A stretch of DNA of 64,000 nt from positions 15,079 to 79,078 of the forward strand of contig JAFXPE010000004.1 in the NCBI GenBank assembly GCA_017528205.1, given 5' to 3'. The notes under the pieces were generated by a model, which was not told the DNA's origin, did not search any database, and saw only the letters and a program-made list of their open reading frames with translations. Position numbers and translations under genes: made by a program. This document shows, piece after piece, positions 10,701 to 35,011 of this stretch (position 1 is the first letter of the stretch; every line of letters starts with the position of its first letter). The DNA comes from Alphaproteobacteria bacterium. Lineage in GTDB: Bacteria > Pseudomonadota > Alphaproteobacteria > RF32 > CAG-239.

Positions 10701-13700
10701 GCATTATCCATATTTTGCGGAACATCTCCGGCATCTTGCTGCTTTTGCTTTACTCCTCCCGAAAATGCAGCGGCGCCTTCAATATCAACTTTCTGATTAT
10801 AAGTAGTGGCATTAACGGCCAAATTTGTTGCCTCAATGTCAGAATTTTCTATGCTTGCTCTGACATTTCGGTCAATTGAGGTTGTGTTTACACTTGCGCC
10901 AACGGCTATGCCTGAAGAACTTTGTTCGCCGTCTTCAACCTCTTCTTTTTGTTGCGCCAAGGAACCCTGAACAATTATATTGGTGATTTCATCTTTAGCT
11001 TCTCTTGGATAGGTTATTGCGGGATCAACTTGCTGTTCTTTTTCCTCCGGAGTTAACTCTCTTTGTTGTTTCCACTTTATCTCATCGGTTTTATCATCTC
11101 TTTTGAGGTTTCCACCGGTTGTTCTAATGGTTGCTTTTCCGGCATTTACTTCAATATTATCGGCAACAACCGTATGGTTGTCTTTAATATTTGATATCTT
11201 GGCAATGGTATCTCCGCTGATTTTTTGAATATGAATAGAGCCGTCAACCCCGATTTTTTCCGATTTACCGCCGGTTATAATGATGTTCATATACGACTGC
11301 TCGGTTGCACTGTCAACGTTTATATTGCCCTCTTCGGCTTTAACCGTTGAGTTATCAATCATGGCTGTTGCATGATTGGTATAGTTATCAAACACAAAAT
11401 TGGCTCCGATACCGGCTTTGCCGCCCTCAACAGTCGGCTCATATTCCCAATCTTGTTGCCCCGGAAGTTTATAGTTGAGTTTTTTTATTAAAATATCAAC
11501 GAGTCCGGCGCCGTTATATCCGATAACCGAATTAACCGCATTAACAACAACATCGCCGTCTACCGTGATATCGGAATTGTTTTGAATGGCCGCTATGGTA
11601 TTGGTATTAACCTCGTTATACACCACCGCCGCCGAAGCCGATGCGGTGCCGCCAACCGAATTTGTTTGGGCAAGGTTATTAAAGAAACCCGCCATTTTGA
11701 ATTTCGGTTTCAGTCCGGAATAACTTGCTATAATATTTTGTTCGGCTAATCCGGATACTTCAAAAACAGGTGCTGTATCATCGGCTTTCGGTGTTGCCGG
11801 AGAAACGCTCCACTTTCCGTTAGCTTCGGAAGCAAATCTGCCGCCCACAAAAAAGCTGTCCATCCCCATAATCTTGAAAGGAAACCGCATTCCGAAAGTA
11901 AGACTTCCGACATTCATCGGCAGTTCGGTGGTTGCGTCGACCGTAACATTTTCCGCCTCAATTTTTGACTTATCGATAATCGCTTTTGTGGTATTGTTTT
12001 GTTCACTTAAAATAAGGGCAACCGAAACGCCGAACTTGGCCTCGCCTTGCGTATCCGATGTAGCGGTATTGGTAAGCAAATCAACCGCATTCGCTCTGAT
12101 GATTACATCACCGTCTGCCTTAACTTTAGAATTTTCAATGGTTGCGGTTGTATTATTATTGGTATTGTTGTGAACAACGGCACCGCCGAGTTCAAGCGCT
12201 GCATTGTCGCCTTCTTTGCCAACAACAGGTGTTTTGCCTTTTATTTTGTTGAATATATTAAGTTTGAAGAATTTACCTTGCAATTCCTTTAATTTTTTAT
12301 TCATTGCGGCATCAAAGGTTTTCGGTTTTTGCACCATCATATCAAGAACGCTGCCGTCGGGGGCGTTTTCGGTTTTATGCAAACTTTGCGCCAGAACGGT
12401 CGTATCTTCCGCGGTTGTAATTTCGCTGTCTTTTATACGAGCGGTTACGTTATTATTTGAACGATTTAATACAACGCCGGCCGAAGATGCACTGTTGGCG
12501 GCATCATCAGGTTTATTCGGGTCTTTTTCGCCGGCAACTGCTTCTATGGAAATTTCCGCGTAACTGTCGGATAAATTTGTGGCAAACACGCTCAAATTGT
12601 CAGCCTCAACCGTTGATTTTATGATTGATGCCTCGGTATCGGTTTTAACCGTATTGTTTAAGAACATCAAAAAGAAACCTTCTTCCAGCTTTATCGAAAA
12701 AAGGCTGTCCGAGGTGATAACCGTTGAATTTTCGTTTGTGGAAACGGCGGTTACATCAATATCGCCGTTAACAGCGTTCAAAACAGAATCTTTGACGATT
12801 GCTTTTGACACCGTTTCGGTGCCAACCGCGTAAATACCGACCGGCAATATAAAGGCCAGCAATCTGTTATTGGCATCTAAACTTGATGAAGCCTCGGTTG
12901 ATATTTCAATATTTTTAGCAGCATCTCCAACGGCATTAATGGTGGAACCTTCAACATTAACAATCGCCGAACTTTTGGCTCCCTCAAAATGTTTATAAAT
13001 CTCAGAACTGAAATATTCTGCAAAATAAGAATCTCCGCTGAATATGTAATCAATTATCGTCGGGGTTAAAAAGTTTGCATTTTCGCTGGTTTCACTTGAC
13101 GCTTCAGCATGAATGAAAACGGATAAATCAGGATTTTCCGCATCAGACGCGGTTGCTTTCAGGGCATTTATAATTGAATACCTTACATTTACTTCAGCTT
13201 CGGCTTTACCGGCCACTCCCCAAAGCGATGTTACCGGAGGGATATCGGAATCCGGCGATAAAACAAGATCTTCCAGAGTGTTGATAATAAATTCAACATC
13301 ATCAACCGGATTGGCGGCATCAAAATCCTTTTTCTGTGTGGCTGTTGCAACCAAAGAAACCGTATCTCCCGTTATATTGGAATTTACAACATTAACGCTG
13401 GCTTTTGCCAAATCCACTTTCTGTTGTCTGTCCACCTCTGAGTTTGCGGAAATATCAATTTCATTGGCAGCAATATCGGCCTGATTAATGTCCACTTTGG
13501 TTGTTAATTGTTTGTCATTTCCCGAATCAAAGCCATATCTTTTATTGGCTACAATCTTTATCTTTCCGCCTTCCAAGCTGAAACCGTCGGCATCGGTAAT
13601 ATTATTTGCTACCAAACTGTCAAAAACTTGTTTGGCTTGCTGCTGTGTCATAACCTTTTTTGGGTTCTTCACGCCGGCAACAATTCCGGCTCTGGAGCCG

Positions 13701-14356
13701 TATTCTCCGGCGACTGCAACATCTTTACCGTAAAGTTCCACATCTCCTTTGGCCATAATTTTACCTTTTACGGTAATGACGCCTTCCGAATTTTTCAATA
13801 GCTCATTATATTTTTCGGCTCCGTGTTCATAGTCAGACAGATGATAGGATAAATCGCCGTCATAAGCGTGCTTTAAATCGTTATATTTACCCAGTGTTGG
13901 TGTAGCCATTGTCAGCGAGCCGACGTTCAAAACGCCCGAAGCTCCGACCACAATGCCGTTTGGCGAAACAAAAATCGCATGCCCGTTATAAAAATTGTTG
14001 CCCTTAACCGTGTTGACAATACCGTTAATATTAACCTGATTGTCTACCATATTTACAAATTTATTATAGCCCTGATCAAATTTTAAGTTTGCCACATCGC
14101 CGTTATCCAGAGTAAAATCCGTATACTGTCTGAAACCCGTGTTACCGGAAACTTTCGCCGCATCAATATTATAAACCCCGTTATTGCCCGAAACTCCGGT
14201 AATGTTTGTGGCAAACACCGGGGTAACATCTAAAAACATCATACTGTATGCCGTTATAAACGACACAATCTTGCGAAACAATGACGGCTGTTTAAACACA
14301 ATTTCCTGCGATTTTTTAATATGGATTTTCTTTAAACGTTTAGTGGCTTTAGACAT
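1739..14356 (-). CDS. Giant two-partner-secretion exoprotein (TpsA / filamentous-hemagglutinin-like adhesin), 4205 aa
   Basis: The N-terminus has a signal-like segment and a TPS secretion domain: N-x-x-G-x-x-x-N-I... then ...FVSPNGIVVGASGVLNVGSL, which is the NPNG-type motif. Thousands of residues of Gly/Asn/Ser/Thr/Val-rich beta-helical repeats follow. There is an acidic D/E plus K/N low-complexity insert mid-protein and a distinct ~90-aa C-terminal domain. Confidence 0.85.
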   Translation of the reverse strand: MSKATKRLKKIHIKKSQEIVFKQPSLFRKIVSFITAYSMMFLDVTPVFATNITGVSGNNGVYNIDAAKVSGNTGFRQYTDFTLDNGDVANLKFDQGYNKFVNMVDNQVNINGIVNTVKGNNFYNGHAIFVSPNGIVVGASGVLNVGSLTMATPTLGKYNDLKHAYDGDLSYHLSDYEHGAEKYNELLKNSEGVITVKGKIMAKGDVELYGKDVAVAGEYGSRAGIVAGVKNPKKVMTQQQAKQVFDSLVANNITDADGFSLEGGKIKIVANKRYGFDSGNDKQLTTKVDINQADIAANEIDISANSEVDRQQKVDLAKASVNVVNSNITGDTVSLVATATQKKDFDAANPVDDVEFIINTLEDLVLSPDSDIPPVTSLWGVAGKAEAEVNVRYSIINALKATASDAENPDLSVFIHAEASSETSENANFLTPTIIDYIFSGDSYFAEYFSSEIYKHFEGAKSSAIVNVEGSTINAVGDAAKNIEISTEASSSLDANNRLLAFILPVGIYAVGTETVSKAIVKDSVLNAVNGDIDVTAVSTNENSTVITSDSLFSIKLEEGFFLMFLNNTVKTDTEASIIKSTVEADNLSVFATNLSDSYAEISIEAVAGEKDPNKPDDAANSASSAGVVLNRSNNNVTARIKDSEITTAEDTTVLAQSLHKTENAPDGSVLDMMVQKPKTFDAAMNKKLKELQGKFFKLNIFNKIKGKTPVVGKEGDNAALELGGAVVHNNTNNNTTATIENSKVKADGDVIIRANAVDLLTNTATSDTQGEAKFGVSVALILSEQNNTTKAIIDKSKIEAENVTVDATTELPMNVGSLTFGMRFPFKIMGMDSFFVGGRFASEANGKWSVSPATPKADDTAPVFEVSGLAEQNIIASYSGLKPKFKMAGFFNNLAQTNSVGGTASASAAVVYNEVNTNTIAAIQNNSDITVDGDVVVNAVNSVIGYNGAGLVDILIKKLNYKLPGQQDWEYEPTVEGGKAGIGANFVFDNYTNHATAMIDNSTVKAEEGNINVDSATEQSYMNIIITGGKSEKIGVDGSIHIQKISGDTIAKISNIKDNHTVVADNIEVNAGKATIRTTGGNLKRDDKTDEIKWKQQRELTPEEKEQQVDPAITYPREAKDEITNIIVQGSLAQQKEEVEDGEQSSSGIAVGASVNTTSIDRNVRASIENSDIEATNLAVNATTYNQKVDIEGAAAFSGGVKQKQQDAGDVPQNMDNAQDKADNKSVDNSISEAPKDDDDDESVDDETYFRELLKKKKNNNNEDDDDDSIIDKILDQFSLSVAGAVDVTQDDTKVEASVNDSELTIGKDLEINAVRGVKNILLGGAVAKSNKNGAGAAVAYNNQSGSVKSLINNSDIEFADSNSQLVLNADNKNWLLNISIGAGASVNSDEENKGFQSAVGGSLNINTLEPEIVAAIENSSIGTDDYAKNVDVDIKAKNKVDVYNIAGGGAYLSGNGSNGVGAGAAVNYNNIKNNISAYIANSTLENINNLSVLADADNNMNDFAIAGSLVTGAETGWAFDGSADINYVHDTVKAKIMGSTITAKKDITVKANSNSNNLDAAGTIDILTTGSGAGVNGDVVINLFANDVTAEIGDSYKVGANLVPVTDQQTDILRAKDINVAATSTEKVNNILAGAAVSTGGSYLMAAANVNVNLVDNAVKAYVSGNFGIGRSTNFINGLNVAAYDETTIYTRGATVSAAASQEAATVIAGSVNVDKLTKNVEAKIIDADVNARGDVTATAASVNSLGGTKNDNNQYSRDDVTSKEYREKLLHKDTSGLYDGLQMKNGVALDQDSDFVNWNMFFDVAGGSNIAVAGAGIGKVIANFVTAEISNSAIKADNLYVLADDYSIKNIIAGTISGSLKGAAGLSVLYTKDKSTTSALIGNGSELDILRNLTLDAANKKDNHQILITGSGAIKGSINANIAINNVEDKVFAVIDNQTKNKEIYAGNINLNANEDINAAHIVVSGGGASNMVLDVNPIVNTYDATVEAAVKKANLKDAAIALKAQSKIDSLDVSAGVAGVAKGFAGVGVAIKNDYTGNIKSYIDNAVIDTKQNIDIDANSVINANNWVVGGSAAAQGASITVNALLNNVDTTLEAGIKNSEIENADVISINTNKDKTDSFDNNAIAAALAGQGASAIVNVIKNDFTNSVTSYVDNTKSAEIGSLEVIANSDRRTNNINFGLIVTGQGAGLAANALVNDINSTTRSYVDTKSKTLNVERNLDVKSNDTAAARNSVVMGSLAGLGGTVGLNINLYNANNLVKSEILSATAGQVNAGSVNMNSELTNALDNTQVDLSLGLAAVPIDVQVIKIGQKTNTYSKAEQVSDVKKYLNTAFSMIPQGLPTPTTPSNNLQTGAISSVNGNIKTALDTNINAKSRIRGLAKQNGKDVLTDELDLNSFTLVGALGSASVGVRDVQIANNTIAEIKGGKVESTDGDVALKAESASKVKMTNMRAEVSGLQVSGGSDIYENSSETLAQIRDATVNAHSIGVNSKSKSHATIDTTHIAGAIGSVVNVDLVEANDTNKTVSLITGNTNINAKDKLILHSTVDTDLQSLKLSVPIAGASLVSVMKNDATANTISKAIIENVNGAIKTNGLDIITDYDNMSVTARSNIVSVKAISVAEYNDSGAFMNAYFKSGIDSLDGLTLKNTGTTNIITARGNNQKDVSAYGRTHDVSVQLAGIYTGTFAHAETNATSATVLKVKNHTSNKLNLDQYLNSKAKADANGTKVTVAGVYAVAAAATDKSKMTLDVGGNNTIITPSHINLKHNATTEADLKAFNLGLLVAGSRIRVDSDMEADTFANIGGNFNVKDNNININIDTIRNAKLDKTSGTGGLINIADTGMSNTLKGKSILNLTNLKTDDKQDKNRFFINNRSINTYQVKTTDGSGGFINVSDTSATSTFNTSTETNIENADVNSQSDFSMLTQDTTAIEDNASNAGGGLFISYVGDKANNSYSSTAKINIKNSNIKAKDLKLQADSSVTAKDLKDISYTGDTGGFVAIGAINVTNNITNTSEINIQNSALEATHNAVLEAITGSYFKQKIENEADGFVSVAKGTSNLNVTNNNKITIDNKSTILANNELEIDFNSSNTLVSRVVSDVVNIGGEPVAKSYLNLTINNTLENSGTLQAGNLMDINFMNSSTNTLTQFAQAVSRAAIATTAEDGKLTRTINNKLDNKANADITSGKDIDINYSNGIGETNSVIYWVTKSGWGVITDSGQSSKYDLSSKHNLNNNGKITAAVNNSKYMKINRDGSVDKTTLKGFHDGDYILNDGAIIDGAKIKEQKLSEIDIELENVNGTINEYENTIANYNTLVAKLNQQKADAEATLNELTAFIENGAVLLESKTGNSGIYAGISAFDLKMQKDMGCVRQTNTDPGYAGKITQAEYNTLMQDYTTALNNNPNLTMAEFLNASDYGFSNAQKNNIVKGYNDVKSRLSITLHGFAKYIGKDGITYLAALNPTGEGAAQSCKNMLDLNSKIEDIANQIKSIQYIKANGTALLEDLRDERAKLTAEYNAIWETPADEYSYSGEDYSLVFNDIRINPNGAEINVHGLTNANITGNGVFDIAKSGLQIDNYSTRSLVFNDININTETANSSLIINDKEQTEFANKPQAISGQKANEYFYGSSSIWKQNNERPSFDSLPTTGVHFTVSNTKFVGTTINNYYDNNHPLADTLDIPNSTIASDITINGDINTGVLNILNESGNIAIQSSNIDTGNLNLFATNGQIDIETHNDENNAKFTLNAGSKIFAADGLNITADEVDIKSGSNIQTGYSLRGIKITDNMLKEENLIVDPTTGEKNLLDLGGNRLSPNLNDGVIKGNIKAIYKNGQIYVYNLPELEADNGIKIVANKGTVKGVMTVSTGPQTIEINNETDKPLIVGDIANTSIDGAYSVEGGATSKANLTTQKAIKAKTDIISEGKVALNGKIVNGIDAKIGTPSEDGELTVKAKNGIDIAKHQTYDAITAGGLIDIANTQNGALNIYGNITNKKGNTNLYGSDGISLFGKIHSVDGDVSMTAREGDLLLAKGSQIHIDKGNLSLNQQDVFGNLIMAGQIILRDGNLTTYSLGNETNNGLIFGREFMDENDLSDLIPANSNEPEVDYALNNNMGYGYDVTGDKDLKSSVKILRLHREGATIVNENHWKVGDKMEFSIAFDGVDVVAKCKVIKAENGIAQVMFLDLPRSVATKITERYMNKGLFHQWASN

Positions 14357-14538: not shown

Positions 14539-14653
14539 CAACAATTGTCGGATTGTAGCGGATTATCAAGATGAAAAGAAATCGAGAATCAAAGTAAAAA
14601 CGGGAATTTCTTGAAGTTGAACGACTTTGCCAAGAAAAAGAAAGAGGTATAAA

Positions 14654-15589
14654 ATGAAAATAATCAAAGACTTTTTTATTAAATACATGGCGCTGATTGT
14701 GCTGGTTATCGCCTTGGTGTCCCTTTTTGCCCCACAGAGCGCTTTATGGATTTCGACCTCGTGGATAAATTATCTGCTGATGGTGGTGATGTTCGGCATG
14801 GGCCTGACCTTAAAGCCGGAAAGCTTTGTTTTGGTTTTCAAGCGCCCGAAGGATATCCTTTGCGGCATTTTTGCTCAATTTACGATTATGCCGCTGCTGG
14901 CTTTTGGCTTAAGTCGCCTGTTCGGGCTTGATGCCGCCCTGACCGCCGGTGTGATTTTGGTCGGAACCTGTCCGGGCGGAACGGCCAGCAATGTGATTAC
15001 CTACTTTTCCAAGGGCGACATTGCGCTTTCGGTTTCCATGACCAGCGTGAACACCCTGCTCGCCCCGCTCTTGACGCCGCTGGTGACTTATTTGCTGCTC
15101 AATACAACCGTTGAAGTGAACATGGCGAGTATGCTGTTGGCGATAGTCAATGTGATTTTAATCCCGATTGTGCTGGGTTTTGTTATCAATCGTTTCTTTG
15201 CGACCGCAACGCAAAAAATGGTGGATTTGTTGCCGGTGATTTCAGTGGTGGCGATTTGTATGATTGTGGCAACTGTGGTGGCGCACAATGCCGAAAAAAT
15301 CTACACTTGCGGATTTTTGGTTTTGAGCGTGGTCGTGTTGCATAACCTTTTGGGCTATTTATGCGGCTTTACGCTCGGGAAGTTGCTCAAAATGGAACCG
15401 GCGAAAGTTAAGGCGTTTTCTATTGAAATCGGCATGCAGAACTCCGGATTGGCCACGAGTTTGGCCGCCACCTCATTTCCGACACTCGCCATGGCCACCG
15501 TACCGGGAGCGATTTTCTCGGTATGGCATAACATTTCCGGCGCAATTTTGGCCGAAATCTACCGACATTGGCACACTGAGGAGAAATAA
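14654..15589 (+). CDS. Bile acid:sodium symporter (BASS/SBF) family transporter
   Basis: A polytopic membrane protein with the BASS-family signature region (...GTCPGGTASNVITYFSKGDIALSVSMTSVNTLLAPLLTPL...). The start was moved to the internal ATG at 14654, which is preceded by an agaaagagg RBS. Confidence 0.7.
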   Translation: MKIIKDFFIKYMALIVLVIALVSLFAPQSALWISTSWINYLLMVVMFGMGLTLKPESFVLVFKRPKDILCGIFAQFTIMPLLAFGLSRLFGLDAALTAGVILVGTCPGGTASNVITYFSKGDIALSVSMTSVNTLLAPLLTPLVTYLLLNTTVEVNMASMLLAIVNVILIPIVLGFVINRFFATATQKMVDLLPVISVVAICMIVATVVAHNAEKIYTCGFLVLSVVVLHNLLGYLCGFTLGKLLKMEPAKVKAFSIEIGMQNSGLATSLAATSFPTLAMATVPGAIFSVWHNISGAILAEIYRHWHTEEK

Positions 15590-16030
15590 ATGAAAAAGGC
15601 TCTGTTAATCATCGATGCGCAGAAAGCGGCGGTTGTTAAGCCGGAAATTGTGCGAAACATTGAAAAGTTGCAGTATGAATATGACGTGGTCTATGTCTCG
15701 AAGTTTACCAACACCGGCTCGCCGTTGCTAGAGATAATGGATTGGGCGGGTTATGATGACGAAACGCTCGCTTTTGAGCCAAAAAAAGATGCGATTGTGT
15801 TCACCAAGACCGGCTATACCTCATATTTGCCGGAGATGAAGGCGTTTGATGAAATTCACCTTTGCGGATTTGATACCGAGGCCTGCGTTTATAAAACGGC
15901 GTTGGACTTGGTGGAGATCGGGGTGCGACCTATTGTCTTAAAGGATTATTGCTATAGCTCCGACGAACAAATGCACGCCATAGGCCTCAAGATATTGGAG
16001 AAAAATATCGGGAAGAAGAATATGATATAG
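15590..16030 (+). CDS. Isochorismatase-family cysteine hydrolase (short form)
   Basis: It begins MKKALLIIDAQ... and has the C-terminal ...HLCGFDTEACVYKTALDLVEIGVRPIVLKD... typical of the isochorismatase/CSHase fold. It is start-stop coupled to the transporter gene. Confidence 0.6.
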   Translation: MKKALLIIDAQKAAVVKPEIVRNIEKLQYEYDVVYVSKFTNTGSPLLEIMDWAGYDDETLAFEPKKDAIVFTKTGYTSYLPEMKAFDEIHLCGFDTEACVYKTALDLVEIGVRPIVLKDYCYSSDEQMHAIGLKILEKNIGKKNMI

Positions 16031-16161: not shown

Positions 16162-16875
16162 TTAATAGAACTTCCATTCTATTGAAGCAGTAGCCCCATT
16201 GGAACCCCTAGCGGTCTTACCGCAGCTAGAAGTCGCACTAGCCACAGAAACTGGAAAGCCTTTCGCTCCGTCGTTAGGTCCTTGATTTTTGTTAACCATG
16301 CAGTGAATACTTCCCCAGACTTCACTTTGACCTGTACACGCATTTACATATTTATTCGCCACAGAAACGGCTTTAGTCCTCGCAGCAATACTCATAGCAA
16401 TCAAACCACCGCTTTTAGTTGTTCCTCCCCAGTCAACCAAAGCCAATGCAATACATGCCTCAATCGGAATATCATCAAACGATATGTGGAATGCATCTTT
16501 ACGTGTTGTTTTTTTATAATTTTTCTCAGATGCATTGAAACGAACAGGTGTACCCCATGGAGTTTGATATGTATTTGTTCCGTTACCATCCTTGCTGGCA
16601 TACATATCATCCGGTACAATATTGAATTTATCAATAATTTTACCACCTATTCCCGTACCATCACCCAATGAAGAATAGTCTTTTGAGTTTCTGAAAGCCC
16701 TACGCATATTGCTGACAACTAGAGTGATTTGTTCAATCGCCTTATTGGTCTTATACCTATTCATAGCTTTAGAATAACCGGCAAGACCACCAACGGACAG
16801 TACACCGATAATAGCCAAAACGCCAAGCATCTCAATCATCGAACGACCTTGTTCTAAATTTTTATTATTAATCAT
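16162..16875 (-). CDS. Type IV pilin-like protein (prepilin-type N-terminal cleavage/methylation domain)
   Basis: The N-terminus QGRSMIEMLGVLAIIGVLSVGG matches the class III signal (G/xxxE followed by a hydrophobic helix) of type IV pilins and pseudopilins. The Gly/Thr/Ser-rich C-terminal half has Cys residues. Confidence 0.7.
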   Translation of the reverse strand: MINNKNLEQGRSMIEMLGVLAIIGVLSVGGLAGYSKAMNRYKTNKAIEQITLVVSNMRRAFRNSKDYSSLGDGTGIGGKIIDKFNIVPDDMYASKDGNGTNTYQTPWGTPVRFNASEKNYKKTTRKDAFHISFDDIPIEACIALALVDWGGTTKSGGLIAMSIAARTKAVSVANKYVNACTGQSEVWGSIHCMVNKNQGPNDGAKGFPVSVASATSSCGKTARGSNGATASIEWKFY

Positions 16876-17238: not shown

Positions 17239-17658
17239 TTATGCTCCCCACTGCATCAGGAATTCTTTTTCGCAGGTATCGGGGTCGGTTTGGTCGGAAA
17301 TGGCGATAAATCCGTTTTGCTTATAAAACTCGACAGCGGATGCGTTCTTTTCATAAACCATCAGTTGCAGACGATGCTTTTGCTCCTTTACAAAATCCAG
17401 CAATTGCCGCCCTACTCCCAACCCTCGACAATCTTGCCGCACAAAAATGCCGGCGATAAAGTCGTCTTGTAAGCCGATAAAGCCCTTTATTTGCCCGTCT
17501 TCATAAACATAAACCGTGCTTTGCGGCAGAATTTTCTTCACAAAATCATAGTTTTTCCGCCAATATTCGGGCGCTATAAAGTCATGCGCCTGCAAATTGC
17601 CCTCGAGCCATATCTGCATTACCGTATCTAAATCGGCTATTTTGAGCGGTCGTATCAT
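17239..17658 (-). CDS. GNAT-family N-acetyltransferase
   Basis: GNAT motif A region ...GIFVRQDCRGLGVGRQLLDFV...; 139 aa. Confidence 0.75.
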   Translation of the reverse strand: MIRPLKIADLDTVMQIWLEGNLQAHDFIAPEYWRKNYDFVKKILPQSTVYVYEDGQIKGFIGLQDDFIAGIFVRQDCRGLGVGRQLLDFVKEQKHRLQLMVYEKNASAVEFYKQNGFIAISDQTDPDTCEKEFLMQWGA

Positions 17659-18098
17659 TTTGCGAGCCTCATATACAACAGCGGAAAAGGTCTGCCCTGT
17701 TCGTCCGTTGCGGTGCGTTTATAGGTTTTAAAGCCGAGATGTTCGTAAAATCCGACGGCCTGAGGATTTTGCTCATTTACAGTCACTTCGCTGATTTGAT
17801 ACTTTTGGGCGCCGTATTCCATCAGTTTGCGCCCTATTCCCTGCCCGATATACTGCGGGTCCAAAAACAACATTTCCAACCGGTGCTGTTCCACCCCCAT
17901 AAAGCCGAGATAATCGCCGTTGTTCTGCGCCACCACGAGATGCGCCACTCCTTTCAGCGCCTGCGGCACATAATTCTCAATTTCCGCGATGTCTTTGCCG
18001 GTTAAAAATGTATGCGTTTTGCTAACCGACCGCCGCCACAGAGCAGTCAGTTCCTTAATTACATCAGAGTTGCGATCTATAACATCAACAATTTCCAT
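17655..18098 (-). CDS. GNAT-family N-acetyltransferase (second, distinct paralog)
   Basis: ...LFLDPQYIGQGIGRKLMEYG... acetyl-CoA binding motif. It overlaps the downstream GNAT gene by 4 nt. Confidence 0.75.
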   Translation of the reverse strand: MEIVDVIDRNSDVIKELTALWRRSVSKTHTFLTGKDIAEIENYVPQALKGVAHLVVAQNNGDYLGFMGVEQHRLEMLFLDPQYIGQGIGRKLMEYGAQKYQISEVTVNEQNPQAVGFYEHLGFKTYKRTATDEQGRPFPLLYMRLAK

Positions 18099-18739
18099 TA
18101 CTTACATCTCTTTTTAATTTCGGCTTTGACTTTTTTCAAATCGCCGGAGGTCAAAAGCGGTATCAGTTCGTTGATTTCCTCAACGCTTTTATCCCACCAT
18201 TTGAATTTCAGTAGCAACTGTATCAATTCGTCATCAAATCTTTTGCGCACCGGTTTTGCCGGATTTCCGACCACAATCGTATATGGCTCGACATTGCTGC
18301 CGACCACACTGTTGGCACCGATTATTGCCCCATCGCCGATATGCACGCCGGGCAGAATTGTCACGTTTTGCCCTATCCACACGTCATTGCCGACAATCGT
18401 ATCGCCCTTAAGGGGTAAATCGGTCTCAGCCGGCGGCTCTTGTTCAAAATCTTCCATAATATAAAACGGAAACGTGGAAACGGCATTCATCTGATGATTG
18501 GCGCCGTTCATCACAAACTCAACCCCTGCCCCGATTTGGCAGAATTTGCCGATAATCAGCTTGTCGCCGATAAAATCATAGTGATGAGTGACGTGCTTTG
18601 CAAAATCAACATCGGCAAAATAGCTAAAATCCCCGACTATAATGTTCGGATTTTTCAGCGTCGGCTTGATATAGGTTACCGTTTTGATATTCGACACCGG
18701 AAAAATTGCATTCGGGTTAGGTTTCGTTGCCTTTGTCAT
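18098..18739 (-). CDS. Hexapeptide-repeat xenobiotic acetyltransferase (XAT family; Vat/CatB-like)
   Basis: Left-handed beta-helix hexapeptide repeats with a Vat/CatB-like N-terminus (...IKPTLKNPNIIVGDFSYFAD...GAGVEFVMNGANHQMNAVSTFPF...). The start was set to the internal ATG (MTKATKP), which overlaps the stop of the upstream kinase gene. Confidence 0.7.
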   Translation of the reverse strand: MTKATKPNPNAIFPVSNIKTVTYIKPTLKNPNIIVGDFSYFADVDFAKHVTHHYDFIGDKLIIGKFCQIGAGVEFVMNGANHQMNAVSTFPFYIMEDFEQEPPAETDLPLKGDTIVGNDVWIGQNVTILPGVHIGDGAIIGANSVVGSNVEPYTIVVGNPAKPVRKRFDDELIQLLLKFKWWDKSVEEINELIPLLTSGDLKKVKAEIKKRCK

Positions 18740-19254
18740 CAGAATTCTCCTATATCCAAGTTGTATTCTTCCTCTATCAAATGATACGGCAGTCCATGCT
18801 TTTGGCACTGTTGCAAAATGTGCTCGTTATCCTTTAGAGCCATATCTTGCGTAAAATCGCCATCATCCAGCCGCTTTTCGATAACGTTGGCATGGTTTTT
18901 GATGTCCGCAAAGCGATTTAAAATATAGTTTTGGCTCATAATCAGGCAAATGTATTTGATTTCCGCCAGATAATTTTCGCTAAAATCCTGCCGCCAAGCA
19001 AACGGAATATAACAGCCCTCAACGATTAGATTTTGCTTGTTTTCGATGGCGGTTTTAATCATTTCACGCACAATCGGCCACAAATAGTCCGTCAGCTTAT
19101 CATCATCAAGAGCGGTTAAGGCGGTCTGCTTGCTGCGGATCAGCCCCATTTTCAGCAAATCCAACGACAAGAGCGGAAAGTGATACTTTTCCAGCATTTT
19201 TTGTGCCAGCAAAGTCTTTCCCGTATGCGATGCCCCTGTGATTAAAATTATCAT
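18739..19254 (-). CDS. P-loop NTPase / small-molecule kinase-like protein
   Basis: An N-terminal Walker A (MIILITGASHTGKTLL). Its size and architecture resemble CPT/gluconate-kinase-like small kinases. It is first in a 4-gene overlapping operon with the XAT and GNAT genes. Confidence 0.5.
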   Translation of the reverse strand: MIILITGASHTGKTLLAQKMLEKYHFPLLSLDLLKMGLIRSKQTALTALDDDKLTDYLWPIVREMIKTAIENKQNLIVEGCYIPFAWRQDFSENYLAEIKYICLIMSQNYILNRFADIKNHANVIEKRLDDGDFTQDMALKDNEHILQQCQKHGLPYHLIEEEYNLDIGEF

Positions 19255-19343
19255 AAACCCTCACTTGTTAAAAGCGAGAATAAAACGTTTTTGGTTAAAA
19301 AGCAATATTTTCAAACGCTTTGTTTTTATCATGTTTTTACACC

Positions 19344-19994
19344 TCAGCGACTGACAAATGCTACGATTTCTTTTTGCAAGAGGCGGAACACATTGGCCAC
19401 CAGATATCCGTCGGCAATTGCGTGATTTAAGCGAACGCTCACCGGCATAACCAGTCTGCCGTTTTCTTCGCGATATCGTCCCCAGTTCACGATGGGCGCA
19501 AAGAACAAATAGCCGTCCGGCAACTCAATATTCAACGAATCATACGAAAGCCACGAAATGTATGAGGCATCAAACCAATTCGGATGATTTTCCATATCCA
19601 ACCCGTAATCACGCGTTTGCTTTGCCGTCTCCATATCTTTCAGCGCGCCGGCATAAAACGTGTCATAGTCCTCGTAATATTGCGTGTAAACCGGCGTACA
19701 GGTTTCCGTATCTTCATGAAATACATATTGCGTGGGGTTGACCATATCATAGCAGATAAGCTCGCCCGTCTGCCAAAGATAGCCCATGCGATAATCTTCA
19801 CGCGAATTCATTACTTTGGCAAGGATATACAGAAAATTCAAATAGAATTTCGAACTCGTCCGCTTTGACCAGGCTGCAAGCTCGGTCACATCTATTCTGG
19901 CAGTCATAGAAGTGGAGCATTTGCAGTCTTCCGAAAAGTGACGAAACACACCCTTGCGATAATACGTTTCTTTATCAATGACCTTGTAGTTCAT
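19344..19994 (-). CDS. cat: Chloramphenicol O-acetyltransferase, classic (type A) CAT fold
   Basis: Colinear similarity to CAT_I along the whole protein, including the catalytic-His region ...SVRLNHAIADGYLV... (compare MAIQVHHAVCDGFHV) and ...LFFAPIVNWGRY...; 216 aa. Confidence 0.8.
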   Translation of the reverse strand: MNYKVIDKETYYRKGVFRHFSEDCKCSTSMTARIDVTELAAWSKRTSSKFYLNFLYILAKVMNSREDYRMGYLWQTGELICYDMVNPTQYVFHEDTETCTPVYTQYYEDYDTFYAGALKDMETAKQTRDYGLDMENHPNWFDASYISWLSYDSLNIELPDGYLFFAPIVNWGRYREENGRLVMPVSVRLNHAIADGYLVANVFRLLQKEIVAFVSR

Positions 19995-20479: not shown

Positions 20480-20668
20480 TTACACTCCCGTTTTCACAAT
20501 CCCGCGACCGTATTTGGCTTTGGCCTCTTTGGCACGAGAGATTATCCCCTTGTTGCCACCACCGGTCATCACGCATACGGGTTTGCCCTGCAATAAAGGA
20601 TTATCCTTCCGTTCGCACGAAACGAAAAAGCAATCACAATCCACCAATGCAATAATATGCTGCCGCAT
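20480..20668 (-). pseudogene. Remnant (first ~60 codons) of a Y-family DNA polymerase gene (DinB/UmuC-like)
   Basis: MRQHIIALVDCDCFFVSCERKDNPLLQGKPVCVMTGGGNKGIISRAKEAKAKYG matches the conserved N-terminus of the DinB/UmuC palm domain (IALVDCDNFF.S.E...L.GKPV.V.SNNDG.VIARS.EAK). The ORF stops after 62 aa, and no continuation is present downstream. Confidence 0.6.
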
Positions 20669-21109
20669 TTTGCCCTCTCAATGTTCTATTTCTGTTCTAT
20701 TTGCAACACGAATTTTTATTAAGTCAATCACAATGTTATAATTGTTCCACAGGCAATTTGAAAGATAAATTTTCGTGTGGTGGATTCCTGCTAATATTCT
20801 TTTCAACAATAAATTTCATTATAATGTGCTACCGGATGGCCGGTCGCATTTTGCCACAAAAAATAAGATTTTTCATTTTATATATAGGTCTATTTTTATA
20901 TTTTTCTTATTTTAAACTTGATAATCATCCTGTTTTATGTTAATAGATATATTACCAAAATAGTATATTTTTAAATAGATTGCAACGGTTTTAACACTTC
21001 TGCAATTTAATTATGCGTCCGCGTATAATAAGAAATATATGATTTTTGTGCGATTTTAACAACAAAATATGGAGATAAAAGATGAAAAAATTAAAAATAG
21101 GAGGCCTAA

Positions 21110-22267
21110 ATGGATATTTGGGACGAAATTAAAAAACTGTCCGGCTACCAATCCGGTCACGGCGGAGTGGATAGTTACGGTGTTGACCACAGCGGATTTT
21201 CAACGCGTGATGAGTTGGAATATCAAAGCGCACGATTAGCCAGAGAAAATCAACTGGCGGAAGGTTTTGCTAAGCAAGGAATTGCCGAAGAAAACTATCC
21301 GCAGTTCGGCACAAACTTTTGGGAAGGAACGCCTGAAAATAACTACGGCTTCGGCACTTCAAACATTAAGCAAAATATCGAAAATGTTACAAATCAGTTG
21401 AATAACAGCGGATTTGGTGGCGGAGTGAATAATAGCGGATTTAACGCCAGCGCAAATAACGGACAAGTCACTACAAATTCCGACTATACGGTCAACACCG
21501 AAAGTCTAGTCGGCAAACCGAGCAGTTATTTTCAGAATAATAGTGCAAGCAATACTTTGGGAGGCAATGCAAGTGGAGCATTGAATCAAAATGGTAGCGG
21601 TAACAGTATCAACTATGATAATTATGCAATGCGACAGGACTTAGAAAATAATATCAAACGAGAACAGGAAAGAGCGCAGCGACAAAGCTTAATACCTCCT
21701 TCTAACAATTCTCAGATAACGCCTATTCCTTCAGGAAAACCACTAACTTCGCAAGAAGCGTCCTATATGTTCACACCGACACACCCTGATTATGGCCAAA
21801 TAGGTTCATTGGAATTTGATGGGCAAAATTTGGTTTGGTTGCAAAATGGTCAACCGGTAAAGTATTATCCGGCACAATCCGGTCATAATGATTATCAAAG
21901 CGCTAAATATACCAATGTCTCTAATGAGGGGCCAATACCAGAAGGTGATTATCAGCTTAATCAAGGAACCGGACAGGATTATGAGGAAAGTTTATGGTAT
22001 AAAATCAATAGGAACATGTGGCCTCGTCCTATCAGAAAGAATTGGACGGTCACGCCTGCTGGTTGGGGACATCAACGTATTCCTATCCAACCATTACCAA
22101 GCACGAACACTTTAGGGCGGCATAGTATGTATGTTCATGGAGGAGATAACGGATTTGGCTCTGCGGGCTGTATAGATTTAGAAAGAGGTATGCCTAATTT
22201 CTACGACGACTGGCTAAAATATAACGGGACTTTACCTCTTAAAGTCAAATACAAGAAAGGTTGGTAA
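21110..22267 (+). CDS. DUF2778/Tlde1-like L,D-transpeptidase-fold protein (putative peptidoglycan-targeting toxin) with a Gly/Asn/Ser-rich N-terminal region
   Basis: The C-terminal ~130 aa contain ...GPIPEGDYQL... and the catalytic-type motif ...YVHGGDNGFGSAGCIDLE... (H-G-G...G-S-x-G-C) of the YkuD/Tlde1 family. The N-terminal 250 aa are low complexity. There is no signal peptide. A strong RBS (aggagg) precedes the start. Confidence 0.55.
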   Translation: MDIWDEIKKLSGYQSGHGGVDSYGVDHSGFSTRDELEYQSARLARENQLAEGFAKQGIAEENYPQFGTNFWEGTPENNYGFGTSNIKQNIENVTNQLNNSGFGGGVNNSGFNASANNGQVTTNSDYTVNTESLVGKPSSYFQNNSASNTLGGNASGALNQNGSGNSINYDNYAMRQDLENNIKREQERAQRQSLIPPSNNSQITPIPSGKPLTSQEASYMFTPTHPDYGQIGSLEFDGQNLVWLQNGQPVKYYPAQSGHNDYQSAKYTNVSNEGPIPEGDYQLNQGTGQDYEESLWYKINRNMWPRPIRKNWTVTPAGWGHQRIPIQPLPSTNTLGRHSMYVHGGDNGFGSAGCIDLERGMPNFYDDWLKYNGTLPLKVKYKKGW

Positions 22268-22279
22268 TTAAAATAATAG

Positions 22280-22315
22280 GCAAGAGTTGAAATATACTCT
22301 TGCTCTTTTTTATTT
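22280..22315 (+). terminator. Rho-independent terminator (gcaagagt-loop-actcttgc followed by a T-run)
   Basis: An 8-bp stem and 8-nt loop followed by tcttttttattt, immediately after the toxin-like gene stop. Confidence 0.5.
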
Positions 22316-22357
22316 ACACTGTATTATATTCTTAATTCAACTTAAAATGGTGCAATT

Positions 22358-22714
22358 ATGCTTAAAAATTTACTTCTGATGATGAAAAATAATAAAGCAA
22401 GAATATTTCCGTTTGCGGTCAGTTTATACCTATATGCCTTGTATTCTCGGTGTATATATCTGTTGGGTAAAGATATAATAAAGCGAATTAATGAGGATTA
22501 TTACAGTTATCTGTTGCATAAATGCCGGTGGTTGTGGGCAAACGAAAATGTTCGCAACGAAGCGGCTCTCGTTGTGTTGTTATCGGCCGTGCTTTTGCTT
22601 TCTTTTTATTTGCTCTATCGCAGAAGTTATTATTTTTACGCCGTAATATTGGCGCCGATATATATCTTTTTGTTTGTTACGGTTTGCAGCGCAATACTAG
22701 TACGTTGGTTTTAA
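22358..22714 (+). CDS. Small polytopic membrane protein (candidate immunity protein)
   Basis: 118 aa with 3-4 hydrophobic helices and no recognisable family. It lies directly downstream of the Tlde1-like gene. Confidence 0.4.
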   Translation: MLKNLLLMMKNNKARIFPFAVSLYLYALYSRCIYLLGKDIIKRINEDYYSYLLHKCRWLWANENVRNEAALVVLLSAVLLLSFYLLYRRSYYFYAVILAPIYIFLFVTVCSAILVRWF

Positions 22715-22723
22715 GGAGAAAAA

Positions 22724-23080
22724 ATGTCGGTCAAAGATTTATGTATTAAAATCATCAGAAACCGCAACAGAATAGCGGCTCATTTGTGTTTTTGGGGAAT
22801 GCTGTGTTTCAATTTATTATGTTTGAGTTTGACAATTTATACTATGTTCACCTATGACGGCGGAACGGAAGATGCGAAAGTTTATTATGAAATTCGTGAT
22901 ATAAATATGGCACACGATACATTTTCCGGTTTTATGTTGCGGGAATATTTATTAGGATTATTGTTTGCATTTCCTTTGCTTATATCCTTGCTGTTTGTGC
23001 GGAAAATTACATTAAATGCGGTTATGTTACAACTCTTGCCGATTTTAGTTATGCTCGGTCAAATAGTGTTTTTTGATTAA
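22724..23080 (+). CDS. Small polytopic membrane protein (candidate immunity protein)
   Basis: 118 aa and hydrophobic. An RBS (aggag) precedes the start. It is unrelated in sequence to the preceding one. Confidence 0.4.
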   Translation: MSVKDLCIKIIRNRNRIAAHLCFWGMLCFNLLCLSLTIYTMFTYDGGTEDAKVYYEIRDINMAHDTFSGFMLREYLLGLLFAFPLLISLLFVRKITLNAVMLQLLPILVMLGQIVFFD

Positions 23081-23104
23081 ATTCATAAACAACGGAGTTG
23101 TAAA

Positions 23105-23677
23105 ATGGTAACAAAAGATAGAATATATATGACATTTAAATATCTCGGGTGTTTTCTTGCATGCAATATTTTATTGTGGGCCGTGATATGGCTCATTGCC
23201 GAATTAGACCAAGACAAACTTGAGCTGATTGATTGTTTTGCGTTTGAATACGGATACATTACAAAAACACTCAGTTATCAAAGTTATTTGCAAGGAGCTT
23301 GCACCTACCCTCAAATATGCACATGTGCCGTAAATGCCGAATGGATATTGTTTTTCTATATTTGGGCTTTGCCGATTTTTGTTTTTTATGAAGTTTTTCG
23401 GCGCAAAATCATTCTGCAACAATATCAATACTTGTGCGTTTTGGGCGAAATTGCTTTTGGGGTGGTTATATGTTTTTTATGCCAAGACAATGCACCCTTT
23501 TTATGGTTTCCGCTCGGTAATACTTACAAAATCATCGCACCGATGGCGATTATTATGCTTGCATTACACAGCTTGCCGCCCAAAGTGCTTAAAGTGCTGT
23601 CTATAATTATCGGCACGATTTACGGGTTATATTTTGGGTTTTGTATAGCAATGATTATTCTTAACTTTTTCCATTAA
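23105..23677 (+). CDS. Polytopic membrane protein, 190 aa
   Basis: Multiple predicted TM helices with Cys/aromatic-rich loops; no family assignable. Confidence 0.45.
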   Translation: MVTKDRIYMTFKYLGCFLACNILLWAVIWLIAELDQDKLELIDCFAFEYGYITKTLSYQSYLQGACTYPQICTCAVNAEWILFFYIWALPIFVFYEVFRRKIILQQYQYLCVLGEIAFGVVICFLCQDNAPFLWFPLGNTYKIIAPMAIIMLALHSLPPKVLKVLSIIIGTIYGLYFGFCIAMIILNFFH

Positions 23678-23706
23678 AAAAGGAGGTCTTGTGGCCTCCT
23701 TTTTTT
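23676..23706. terminator. Bidirectional terminator (A5-aggaggtc-ttgt-ggcctcct-T6)
   Basis: A stem-loop flanked by A5 and T6. It sits between convergent genes 23105..23677 (+) and 23771..24223 (-). Confidence 0.55.
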
Positions 23707-33552: not shown

Positions 33553-34830
33553 TTATTCCCCATCTACAGGATGAAAAATTCCATCCTCGACGTATCCATA
33601 TTTTCCATTTTCATAATGATAGAAGCGATTGTCCATATTTTCTTTATGAATAATTACAGGTTTTTGAGAAACAACGACTGAATCATCCGGCACATCAATA
33701 GCTACAGCACATCCTGCACCAATTCTGACATTATTTCCTATTCTTATCTTTCCTATAATTGTAGCACCCGCTCCTATAAGTACATTATCTCCTATTTCAG
33801 GCGATCCATTTTTAGAAGAACCTTTTGTCGTATTTGAACCAATAGTAACATTTTGATAAATAACGCAACGCTTTCCTATTTTGGCCCCTCCTGATACGAA
33901 AATACCATGAAATCCATGTGGAAGCGTTGGAATTGTTGCCCATTTTGACCCACTACCAATCCAACATCCTTTACTATTACACAATTCATTATAAACTCGT
34001 TCATAACGAATTTTTTCATCTCCTGACTTTTTCATAACAAGATCTTTTAATACCCATAAATTATTATGAACTTCTTTTAAAATATCATTGTCATTCACTT
34101 GTTTAGTATAAATTGATCCACTTTTATTTTCATTTGGTAGCATACTGTTTAATAATAATTCGAATTTATTTAGTCTATTTTCTAATGCATCACAATATTG
34201 GGTGAGAAGCTGATTTTGCTTCAATAAATTATCTGCGGTAATTCTATCAACTATCTTATCAATATTTGATATTATTTCATCACATGAGTAAATCGGCTGA
34301 GATAAGATAAATTCTTTCAACTCTGTCTTATCATAGCTATACGGACATATTTTTAAATTAAGTACTATTTTATCTCCTTCCTTAACAGATTTTTCATATT
34401 TAAAAGGTTCATCATGCCATGCAGTAACGGGCTTTGTTAATATTTCTTCACCATCTATTTTAAGAGATGTATAGCATATTTTCAGAGGAAATCTTTTGCC
34501 ATTTATACGTTTATCTTTTCCTCTAAAATCTATTTTAAGTCTACCTGCCTGAGAAATGCCCATAACCAATTCTCGTTCGCATGTATCTCCCTCTATTAAA
34601 ACCCCTTGCCCACGTTCATTTTTGAACCACTCCGGATAAGATATTTTAAGATTTTCTCCTTCAACAGTTATTGTTCCATTTTGTGCGTCATAAATTTTTG
34701 CATCTATCCTAAAAGATAACAACTCCTTTTGTATTTTGGGAAGTATATTATTAATAACTGATGTTATATCACTCATTCTGCTCTCCATTGTTGGAATAAC
34801 ATTCTCCATATTATTAGTATAATGGCACAA
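33553..34830 (-). CDS. Two-domain protein: uncharacterised ~250-aa N-terminal domain fused to a serine-acetyltransferase-like hexapeptide (LbH) acyltransferase domain
   Basis: The C-terminus ...GIFVSGGAKIGKRCVIYQNVTIGSN...GSPEIGDNVLIGAGATIIGKIRIGNNVRIGAGCAV... is colinear with the CysE/SAT C-terminal domain. The N-terminal part has no recognisable motif. The gene looks more AT-rich than its flanks. Confidence 0.55.
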   Translation of the reverse strand: MCHYTNNMENVIPTMESRMSDITSVINNILPKIQKELLSFRIDAKIYDAQNGTITVEGENLKISYPEWFKNERGQGVLIEGDTCERELVMGISQAGRLKIDFRGKDKRINGKRFPLKICYTSLKIDGEEILTKPVTAWHDEPFKYEKSVKEGDKIVLNLKICPYSYDKTELKEFILSQPIYSCDEIISNIDKIVDRITADNLLKQNQLLTQYCDALENRLNKFELLLNSMLPNENKSGSIYTKQVNDNDILKEVHNNLWVLKDLVMKKSGDEKIRYERVYNELCNSKGCWIGSGSKWATIPTLPHGFHGIFVSGGAKIGKRCVIYQNVTIGSNTTKGSSKNGSPEIGDNVLIGAGATIIGKIRIGNNVRIGAGCAVAIDVPDDSVVVSQKPVIIHKENMDNRFYHYENGKYGYVEDGIFHPVDGE

Positions 34831-34963
34831 ATGCTAATATTTCAATAAAATTTAAATAATGTTCATTGAAATATTATACAAGATATAGAATACTCTTCTT
34901 CAACCTTATTATTCCTTTCATCTCACTTTATACAAGAACTAATTTTACACTTATGACAAATAT

Positions 34964-35011
34964 TGGCATTTATTTCGAAATATTATAAACCCGCCGGGTT
35001 TCCGTGGCGGT
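34964..35011. repeat. 48-bp direct repeat, copy 2
   Basis: tggcatttatttcgaaatattataaacccgccgggtttccgtggcggt; see copy 1. Confidence 0.85.

Follow-up and report, generated by a model that had tools for sequence, protein, structure and literature searches.

Polymorphic toxins such as MafB/MafI of Neisseria, CdiA-CT/CdiI and Rhs have a conserved N-terminal part and a junction followed by a polymorphic C-terminal toxin, with the immunity gene immediately downstream, and are accompanied by arrays of N-truncated orphan toxin-immunity modules that are able to recombine into the expressed gene. Pesticin and colicin M, which have no signal peptide, combine an uptake region at the N-terminus with a C-terminal enzyme whose periplasmic target is peptidoglycan or its precursor, and they are paired with an envelope immunity protein. 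Among type VI secretion system (T6SS) effectors, Tlde1a of Salmonella Typhimurium is a single-domain protein of 174 aa encoded inside the T6SS cluster, and its immunity protein Tldi1a is Sec-exported, soluble and encoded upstream of it (PMC9638812); membrane-bound immunity has been reported for one DUF2778 subfamily, 'Tae7/Tai7' (preprint 10.1101/2020.02.18.954545). Here we describe a locus on contig JAFXPE010000004.1 of an uncultured alphaproteobacterium (assembly GCA_017528205.1), found in a stretch of 64,000 nt that was analysed as a whole and is referred to as the window. Positions 20860-23702 of the window very probably make up a single self-contained cassette belonging to a polymorphic toxin system that is specific to one lineage, uncultured Alphaproteobacteria of the gut and rumen. 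In this cassette a new N-terminal domain (the N-domain) carries a Tlde1-type C-terminal domain and is followed by genes for three small membrane proteins, m1, m2 and m3.

In its workings the locus is most like MafB/MafI, CdiA-CT/CdiI and Rhs, having the same layout of N-terminus, junction, toxin, immunity gene and orphans; its N-terminus, however, is unrelated to theirs and is without signal peptide, two-partner secretion (TPS) domain, Rhs or PAAR, the proteins of its family are much smaller (229-602 aa), and the cargo recognisable by Pfam is directed at peptidoglycan whereas theirs is mostly nucleases. Pesticin and colicin M likewise are signal-less and have a C-terminal cell-wall enzyme and dedicated envelope immunity, for which there is a candidate here, but no receptor-binding domain, TonB box or plasmid or SOS context was recognised at the locus and its multi-cassette arrays are unlike them. 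With Tlde1a and Tldi1a the locus shares the toxin fold (Tlde1a is the closest solved structure, PDB 7UMA, 7UO3 and 7UO8, at 26% identity; PMC9638812), the positions of the catalytic His and Cys and of Arg and Ser, the motifs FDGQ.L and IPEG.Y and an adjacent immunity gene, yet at this locus the Tlde1-type domain forms the C-terminal part of a modular protein of 385 aa that begins with a new N-domain, the candidate for immunity is a small membrane protein encoded downstream, and no linkage to a T6SS is seen at the loci examined. The 'Tae7/Tai7' subfamily also combines a Tlde1-superfamily toxin with an immunity protein that has at least one transmembrane (TM) segment, and in some cases its toxin is the C-terminal part of a larger polymorphic toxin (Rhs), the carrier there being Rhs/PAAR (T6SS) whereas here it is a new N-domain of ~100 aa (10.1101/2020.02.18.954545). 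The T6SS markers MIX and FIX are similar in being conserved N-terminal markers on diverse toxins with adjacent immunity, at loci often distant from the secretion cluster (PMC6688995), but no sequence relationship to them was established and orphan N-truncated arrays are atypical of their loci. What is new here is the N-domain family, its taxonomic confinement and perhaps its delivery; no described carrier family contains the toxin.

The initial annotation of this DNA, made from the sequence alone, had placed four open reading frames (ORFs) on the + strand, and the ORF listing returns them at the same coordinates and lengths (Table 1). An AGGAGG lies 6 nt 5' of the toxin ATG at 21110, and since database searches find conserved homologues elsewhere for the toxin, m1, m2 and m3 alike, the four are not chance ORFs. 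The extent of the cassette follows from comparison with related loci (here given L numbers, and family proteins P numbers), as blocks of DNA homology begin at ~20860 and stop at ~23702 at a terminator, the right end being seen in many loci; in L005 the end of one unit directly abuts the leader of the next. The cassette is a lower-GC insert on the + strand amid genes of the - strand. The toxin gene had been credited with its own terminator, and a pattern scan indeed finds a hairpin with a T-run that starts 12 nt past the toxin stop codon and is kept together with the m1-m2-m3 block in L097.

The first 100 residues of the toxin had been taken as part of a 250-aa low-complexity N-terminus, a description that did not survive: residues 1-100 are conserved and predicted to be folded, and only residues 104-174 are rich in G, N, S and Q. 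The N-domain has 15 invariant positions in 59 diverse sequences (Y13, D21, G24, V25, H27, F30, D34, Y38, R42, E46, F70, W71, N78, F81 and G82), and AlphaFold2 (AF2) models it with helices at residues 32-55, 75-80 and 86-99 and a predicted local distance difference test score (pLDDT) of 72-89, both alone and within the full-length protein. The absence of a signal peptide, noted from the outset, was confirmed, the maximum Kyte-Doolittle value of any 10-mer in the first 40 residues being -0.2. No match to the N-domain was found in Pfam and NCBIfam (150 members searched against Pfam) or in PHROGs, its profile has no relative among PDB sequences (best E 0.4), Foldseek gave no fold match (best E 6.8 in PDB and 1.7 in BFVD), and a literature search on the domain or on the secretion systems of the lineage returned nothing relevant; an LXG domain, like TPS, Rhs and PAAR, is absent from the toxin. 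Two candidate identities were rejected, a double-glycine leader for want of conservation of the GG at residues 18-19, and a WXG100- or LXG-like hairpin, an idea that came from the invariant F70-W71-G72, for which Foldseek gave no supporting fold match. Short members of the family have just a core of ~45 residues (…IDEFGVDHSNFSLRDEIEYN..R…), followed by a charged helix and the toxin. Judged by these sequence comparisons, the N-domain is a new conserved domain, missed in the initial annotation, and one that defines a large modular family of predicted toxins.

A search with the full protein returned 335 relatives, many of which share only the first ~100-150 residues (80-95% identity) and have other C-termini. 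The N-domain profile, run against 1.84 billion representatives, found 284 clusters at 50% identity, in proteins of up to 602 aa and with the match essentially always starting at residue 1, and 225 N-domain loci were located in one genome per GTDB species, often several per genome. Nearly all belong to metagenome-assembled genomes of uncultured Alphaproteobacteria from the rumen and human gut, some records being labelled only 'proteobacterium', and the N-domain is absent from 2.9 million IMG/VR contigs and, in a plasmid search, from plasmids. The sole matches in phage collections are two short GenBank entries labelled 'Bacteriophage sp.' and without annotation (MT838567.1 and MT836786.1), which come from viromes of human faeces and encode the N-domain or a Tlde1 C-domain; given the absence from IMG/VR they are probably bacterial fragments. 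The cargo is varied: among 150 members Pfam recognises Tlde1_dom in 41, YkuD in 23, Glyco_hydro_108 in 17, SAA in 14, PG_binding_3 in 9, T6SS_VgrG3-like_C in 3, PG_binding_1 and SLT in 2 each, and Pesticin, Glyco_hydro_46 and Phage_lysozyme in 1 each, so that the N-domain is fused to at least nine Pfam-recognised cell-wall-hydrolase or SAA modules, as well as to several unannotated C-terminal clusters. All of the recognised modules act on peptidoglycan except SAA (PF00277), the C-terminal module in 14 of the 150 members (best E 1.8e-17; for example P0018, P0049, P0051-P0053 and P0058; none in the window), behind which the next gene encodes a small 1-TM or 5-TM protein; a bacterial SAA-like toxin module appears to be uncharacterised so far.

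Between the N-domain and the C-terminal domain, residues 104-174 are predicted to be disordered (pLDDT <50; 56% G/N/S/Q) and a helix at residues 170-193 leads by a short linker into the C-terminal domain. Within this stretch lies a conserved junction motif, SDYTVNTESLVGKPSSYFQNN (toxin residues 124-144, nt 21479-21541), which 42 of 263 family proteins have, in front of at least seven different types of C-terminus, and DNA homology to genes with other C-termini stops at ~21540-21553. In P0003, P0032 and P0035 the same junction motif and Tlde1 C-terminus follow different, unrelated N-termini (e.g. MSKSIGRVFGTGSMSPYGYETDY… in P0003), and toxin modules may therefore be shared by more than one carrier domain.

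The modules are found in arrays and as orphans, with 154 toxin-like ORFs in 82 loci, 153 of them co-oriented and 66 without an N-domain start; 37 of the loci have two or more such ORFs, and in the orphan modules either the junction motif or the 3' part of the N-domain is still present. The toxin C-terminus found in the window recurs, together with m1-m2-m3, as an N-truncated orphan in L002, L084 and L092, and in L002 it is preceded by a full-length GH108 toxin and a further orphan. Conversely, L097 has the leader and N-domain of the window (90% identical in DNA over window 20860-21540) in front of another C-terminus, the homology ending at the junction, and the m1-m2-m3 block (window 22282-23702, 94%) stands further downstream. 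Since relatives thus pair the N-domain with other modules and contain N-truncated orphans, C-termini are evidently swapped by homologous recombination in the N-domain/junction region, and comparison of the loci shows this cassette switching. A shared N-terminus on unrelated toxins, a downstream gene specific to each C-terminal type and orphans that retain the junction are the marks by which polymorphic toxins are recognised, and on sequence grounds all three are present here.

The C-terminal domain had been assigned to DUF2778/Tlde1-like proteins, and both profile and structural searches agree. A profile of 61 family members, run against 177,635 PDB sequences, has Salmonella Tlde1a as its sole match (E 3e-10, residues 5-163 of 174), and PF10908 matches 41 of the 150 family members at E<=0.001. 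The AF2 model, with pLDDT mostly >85, has the Tlde1a structures 7UO3, 7UO8 and 7UMA as its top three Foldseek hits (E 2.6e-8 to 5.7e-8, 26% identity), the housekeeping L,D-transpeptidases following at E 5.7e-5 (YcbB, the next best) or worse and 11-18% identity. Of the two motifs originally pointed out, IPEGDYQL stands (residues 276-283), and the active site was slightly misread, being HGG-DNGF-GSAGCI (H343...C354), that is HGG-x4 and not x5. In 61 sequences R337, H343, S351, G353 and C354 are invariant or nearly so, with the catalytic His343 and Cys354 invariant, and they align with R115, H121, S128, G130 and C131 of Tlde1a, which have been described as functional (PMC9638812); I355 falls at a hydrophobic position.

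The pairing of toxin and immunity gene can be followed across the family, as clustering the C-termini and tabulating the next gene reveals that each C-terminal type has its own kind. Pesticin-like C-termini are followed by an opposite-strand cl1 protein with an N-terminus that by eye is lipoprotein-like (11 of 12), GH108 C-termini by small opposite-strand proteins with a hydrophobic N-terminal segment (cl11 and cl83; 6 of 8), and glycine-zipper-like C-termini by a 3-5-TM protein (11 of 11). Tlde1 C-termini number 19 in about 80 related loci and fall into subtypes 34-100% identical to that of the window; in all 17 cases where a next gene was called it encodes, on the same strand and 22-99 nt downstream, a protein of 106-138 aa with 1-3 predicted TM segments. 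It is because Tlde1 types always precede such a membrane protein that m1 is the candidate for cognate immunity. Homologues of m1 form only six clusters in 5.8 billion proteins, the gene is confined to the position immediately after this C-terminal subtype, at a distance of 91 nt in 9 of 9 loci, and the identities of toxin and m1 co-vary (100/100, 95/83 and 69/66%).

That the three downstream genes encode unrelated small membrane proteins was borne out, with 2-3, 3 and 5 hydrophobic segments in m1, m2 and m3 and no mutual similarity save in the first 16 residues of the two 118-aa proteins. In all 9 loci m2 adjoins m1, and in L005 and L007 an m1/m2 chimera and 39 nt of the toxin 3' end survive deletion of the toxin and m1; in L019 only m3 is left. 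These three loci are, to all appearances in the DNA, relics of toxin loss with retention of immunity. Directly behind SLT-like orphan toxin fragments m3 is found in L087, L017 and L088, and it recurs at array ends in L005, L007, L019 and L097; since elsewhere it sits behind an SLT-like toxin module, it is regarded as an orphan in the window. That m2 and m3 are additional or orphan immunity genes is thus partly shown and partly inferred. The proposal of a toxin/immunity locus with possible orphan immunity genes is accordingly supported by the Tlde1 pairing in 17 of 17 cases, by the co-variation of m1 and by the place of m3 behind SLT-like modules.

A mechanism can be sketched from these elements. 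In its weakest step, the N-domain would be a handle for export or delivery by machinery encoded elsewhere. By analogy with Tlde1a, the C-domain would after export act in the periplasm of a competitor, where, by means of Cys354 and His343, it would cut off or replace the D-amino acid at the end of peptidoglycan stem peptides; this would starve cross-linking and lead to swelling and lysis. Synteny and co-variation suggest m1 as the protector of the producer: it would be a small protein of the inner membrane with up to three predicted TM helices, and the loop of ~30 residues that joins its first two helices, at residues ~36-67, presumably binds the toxin.

A number of observations weigh against this reading. 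Tlde1_dom (PF10908) scores the window protein at 27.8 bits (E 3.8e-6), below its gathering score of 30.1, and the family has Ala in place of the canonical His of the (S/T)HGC motif, with a spacing from H to C of 11 as against 10 in Tlde1a, so that of this motif only the catalytic His and Cys positions are matched. The first hydrophobic segment of m1 is weak. The membrane proteins behind the Tlde1 types form seven sequence clusters without detectable similarity; a common ancestry of these partners was considered, and as hhalign found none a common origin is unproven. At least one C-terminal type has a soluble immunity-like partner without signal peptide, for which reason not all family members need act in the periplasm, and roughly half of the family C-termini have no annotation. 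No secretion apparatus is enriched among the gene clusters that recur within +/-10 kb of about 80 related loci, and because no export machinery was found near the loci the delivery role of the N-domain is assigned by elimination. Toxicity, the periplasmic site of action and immunity are all inferred.

The delivery search covered the toxin loci, ~1% of the genomes, and within that scope no secretion apparatus is linked to them. The initial annotation had seen no T6SS or other delivery genes in the window, and indeed there is no secretion-system family among the window ORFs scanned; furthermore, T6SS, type IV and type I secretion system (T4SS, T1SS) and extracellular contractile injection system (eCIS) genes are missing from seven Pfam-annotated loci, and none of Hcp, VgrG, PAAR or an adaptor was met in the window, among the recurring neighbours of the about 80 loci or in the seven annotated loci. 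A linkage to TPS or contact-dependent inhibition systems was also rejected, the toxin having no TPS domain and the window at 14627-16030 encoding an SBF transporter and an isochorismatase rather than TpsB; a TpsB gene adjoins the toxin only in L001. Our leading guess, a tentative one, is that a contact-dependent apparatus such as the T6SS delivers the toxin.

Ranked close behind this route, and rather doubtful, is delivery as a colicin- or pesticin-like diffusible bacteriocin, in which the N-domain and the G/N/S-rich linker would be a receptor-binding and translocation module that parasitises the outer-membrane and Tol/Ton proteins of the target, with no dedicated secretion apparatus. The lack of secretion genes near any locus examined would fit, as would the fact that all of the Pfam-recognisable cargo is peptidoglycan-targeting and includes a pesticin-like module, and the composition of the disordered linker resembles that of colicin translocation regions; moreover expression appears to be regulated, with a helix-turn-helix (HTH) gene upstream in 18 loci and an operator-like inverted repeat in the leader of the window. 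The short members, however, with their ~45-aa core, charged helix and toxin, leave little room for a receptor-binding domain, none was found, and no TonB or TolB box was seen by eye. Nor is a lysis or release gene present, and arrays of N-truncated orphan toxins are what one typically finds with contact-dependent systems (CdiA, Rhs, MafB).

It is unlikely, though worth considering, that the N-domain marks the substrates of an undescribed route and that these genomes have no T6SS, T4SS or eCIS; such a route, to which we give the same low probability, could take the form of a new export apparatus or of a new self-import mechanism specific to gut Alphaproteobacteria. An N-domain without relative in sequence or fold, a family confined to one poorly studied lineage and the lack of any known apparatus linked to the loci are what such a route would predict, but the argument is one from absence of evidence at the loci alone, and in known systems orphan effector loci distant from the apparatus are common.

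Far less probable is a phage-type lysis cassette of an endolysin-like enzyme with small membrane proteins as holins. Class I holins are of ~110 aa and have three TM segments, a size and topology that the ~110-aa 3-TM proteins match, and many of the family C-termini are endolysin-like (GH108, lysozyme, SLT). Yet no phage genes flank the loci, the N-domain is missing from IMG/VR as mentioned above and PHROGs gave just a weak family of unknown function on the C-domain, whilst the lysozyme-like C-termini pair with opposite-strand secreted or lipoprotein partners and not with membrane proteins, partner genes persist as orphans without the enzyme, and m1 and its analogues are without a charged C-terminal tail.

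The remotest reading, a housekeeping YkuD-type L,D-transpeptidase with a mis-called start, which the initial annotation had already raised, can draw on a Pfam YkuD match slightly above the gathering score (28.7 against 23.4 bits) and is excluded because the profile and Foldseek searches favour Tlde1a (alone in PDB for the profile), the functional residues align with it, and the full-length homologues, which align from Met1 and so with the Shine-Dalgarno sequence back the start, begin with the signal-less N-domain, the toxin genes being moreover multi-copy, modular, variable in context and linked to immunity genes.

Returning to the polymorphic toxin cassette, at least 12 other loci have its leader conserved 5' of a full-length toxin gene, and the homology sets in sharply at ~20860. 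The alignment has a promoter-like TTGAYA, an invariant -35 element of the TTGAC(A) type, and the promoter-like site is flanked by a near-invariant inverted repeat (20898-20914 and 21024-21040); a small hairpin at ~20986-21019 has a few compensatory changes (alignment and RNAalifold). A short upstream ORF with ATG at 21082, GGAGA before it and its stop at 21130-21132 overlaps both the Shine-Dalgarno sequence and the start codon of the toxin. From sequence features such as these the repeat or the upstream ORF may be an operator or a translational-coupling element, and no alphaproteobacterial LexA box was recognised in the leader by eye. In the more distant relatives a protein of ~150-260 aa is encoded directly upstream of the full-length toxin and on the same strand (18 loci; for example L080 9111-9887 and L001 4014-4475), with a basic conserved C-terminal part and, in some copies, an XRE-type HTH at its N-terminus. 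It is the only consistent neighbour among the genes that recur near the toxins and is probably a dedicated regulator; the gene is absent from the window, where the conserved leader stands in its place.

Table 1. Features of the toxin cassette, in window coordinates.
Feature	Position	Strand	Description	Basis
Leader	20860-21109	+	Conserved 250-nt cassette leader	DNA homology with other toxin upstream regions
Toxin ORF	21110-22267	+	385 aa	
N-terminal domain	21110-21409	+	Toxin residues 1-100, presumed export/delivery handle	Conservation, AF2
Linker	21410-21784	+	Residues 101-225	AF2, family comparison
C-terminal domain	21785-22267	+	Tlde1-type L,D-transpeptidase-fold domain (predicted toxin), residues 226-385	Pfam, profile, Foldseek
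Hairpin and T-run	22279-22304	+	Terminator-like, between toxin gene and m1	Pattern scan
m1 ORF	22358-22714	+	118-aa small membrane protein, cognate immunity candidate	
m2 ORF	22724-23080	+	118 aa, 3 TM, putative second immunity gene or retained orphan	
m3 ORF	23105-23677	+	190 aa, ~5 TM, putative immunity-type gene for SLT-like toxin module	
Terminator hairpin	23681-23706	+	GGAGGTC...GGCCTCC and T-run, right cassette end	Sequence, inverted repeat

If this reading is correct, the repertoire of polymorphic toxins would gain a new carrier domain and perhaps a new route of delivery, in a group of uncultured gut and rumen Alphaproteobacteria whose interbacterial weaponry has been essentially undocumented until now. 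The family would provide a ready catalogue of toxin-immunity pairs, among them Tlde1-type enzymes with membrane immunity candidates and SAA-like C-termini, and the N-domain could be used as a search handle for new toxin and immunity domains in metagenomes. Were the undescribed route to prove right, the lineage would be waging cell-wall-directed warfare without the known contact-dependent systems.

Elsewhere in the window the genes are for metabolism and housekeeping, among them those for FeFe-hydrogenase subunits, GlyRS, DXS and a block of acetyltransferases containing CAT. A 4205-aa ORF (1739-14356, -) had been labelled a giant TpsA, which could not be confirmed, as Pfam finds nothing in its N-terminal 700 aa at E<=0.001 and, in its last 699 aa, no more than a DUF2345 match below threshold; it has no adjacent TpsB, the SBF transporter and isochorismatase region already mentioned lying at 14627-16030, and in L097 an 82%-identical copy occupies the opposite flank of the toxin array. 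A bundlin-like type IVb pilin gene (16162-16875, -; PF05307, E 8e-12) lies 4 kb from the cassette, and its homologues (cl19, 9 members in 5 loci, including L017, L043 and L088) recur 5-9 genes from toxins, which may reflect chance or a variable island that they share.

Directly upstream of the cassette, 17239-19994 (-) has a run of genes of modification or resistance type, for two GNAT acetyltransferases, one hexapeptide acetyltransferase, an AAA-kinase-like protein and CAT (E 9e-45). A 62-aa ORF at 20480-20668 (-) matches only the first 44 positions of IMS (Y-family DNA polymerase; E 3.4e-10); it is a gene remnant that lies ~200 bp outside the cassette's left edge and suggests rearrangement in the past. 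Finally, a 425-aa hexapeptide-repeat protein is encoded at 33553-34830 (-) in the stretch of lowest GC in the window (28.7% at 34001-35000 compared with ~42% elsewhere), and its gene may have been horizontally acquired.

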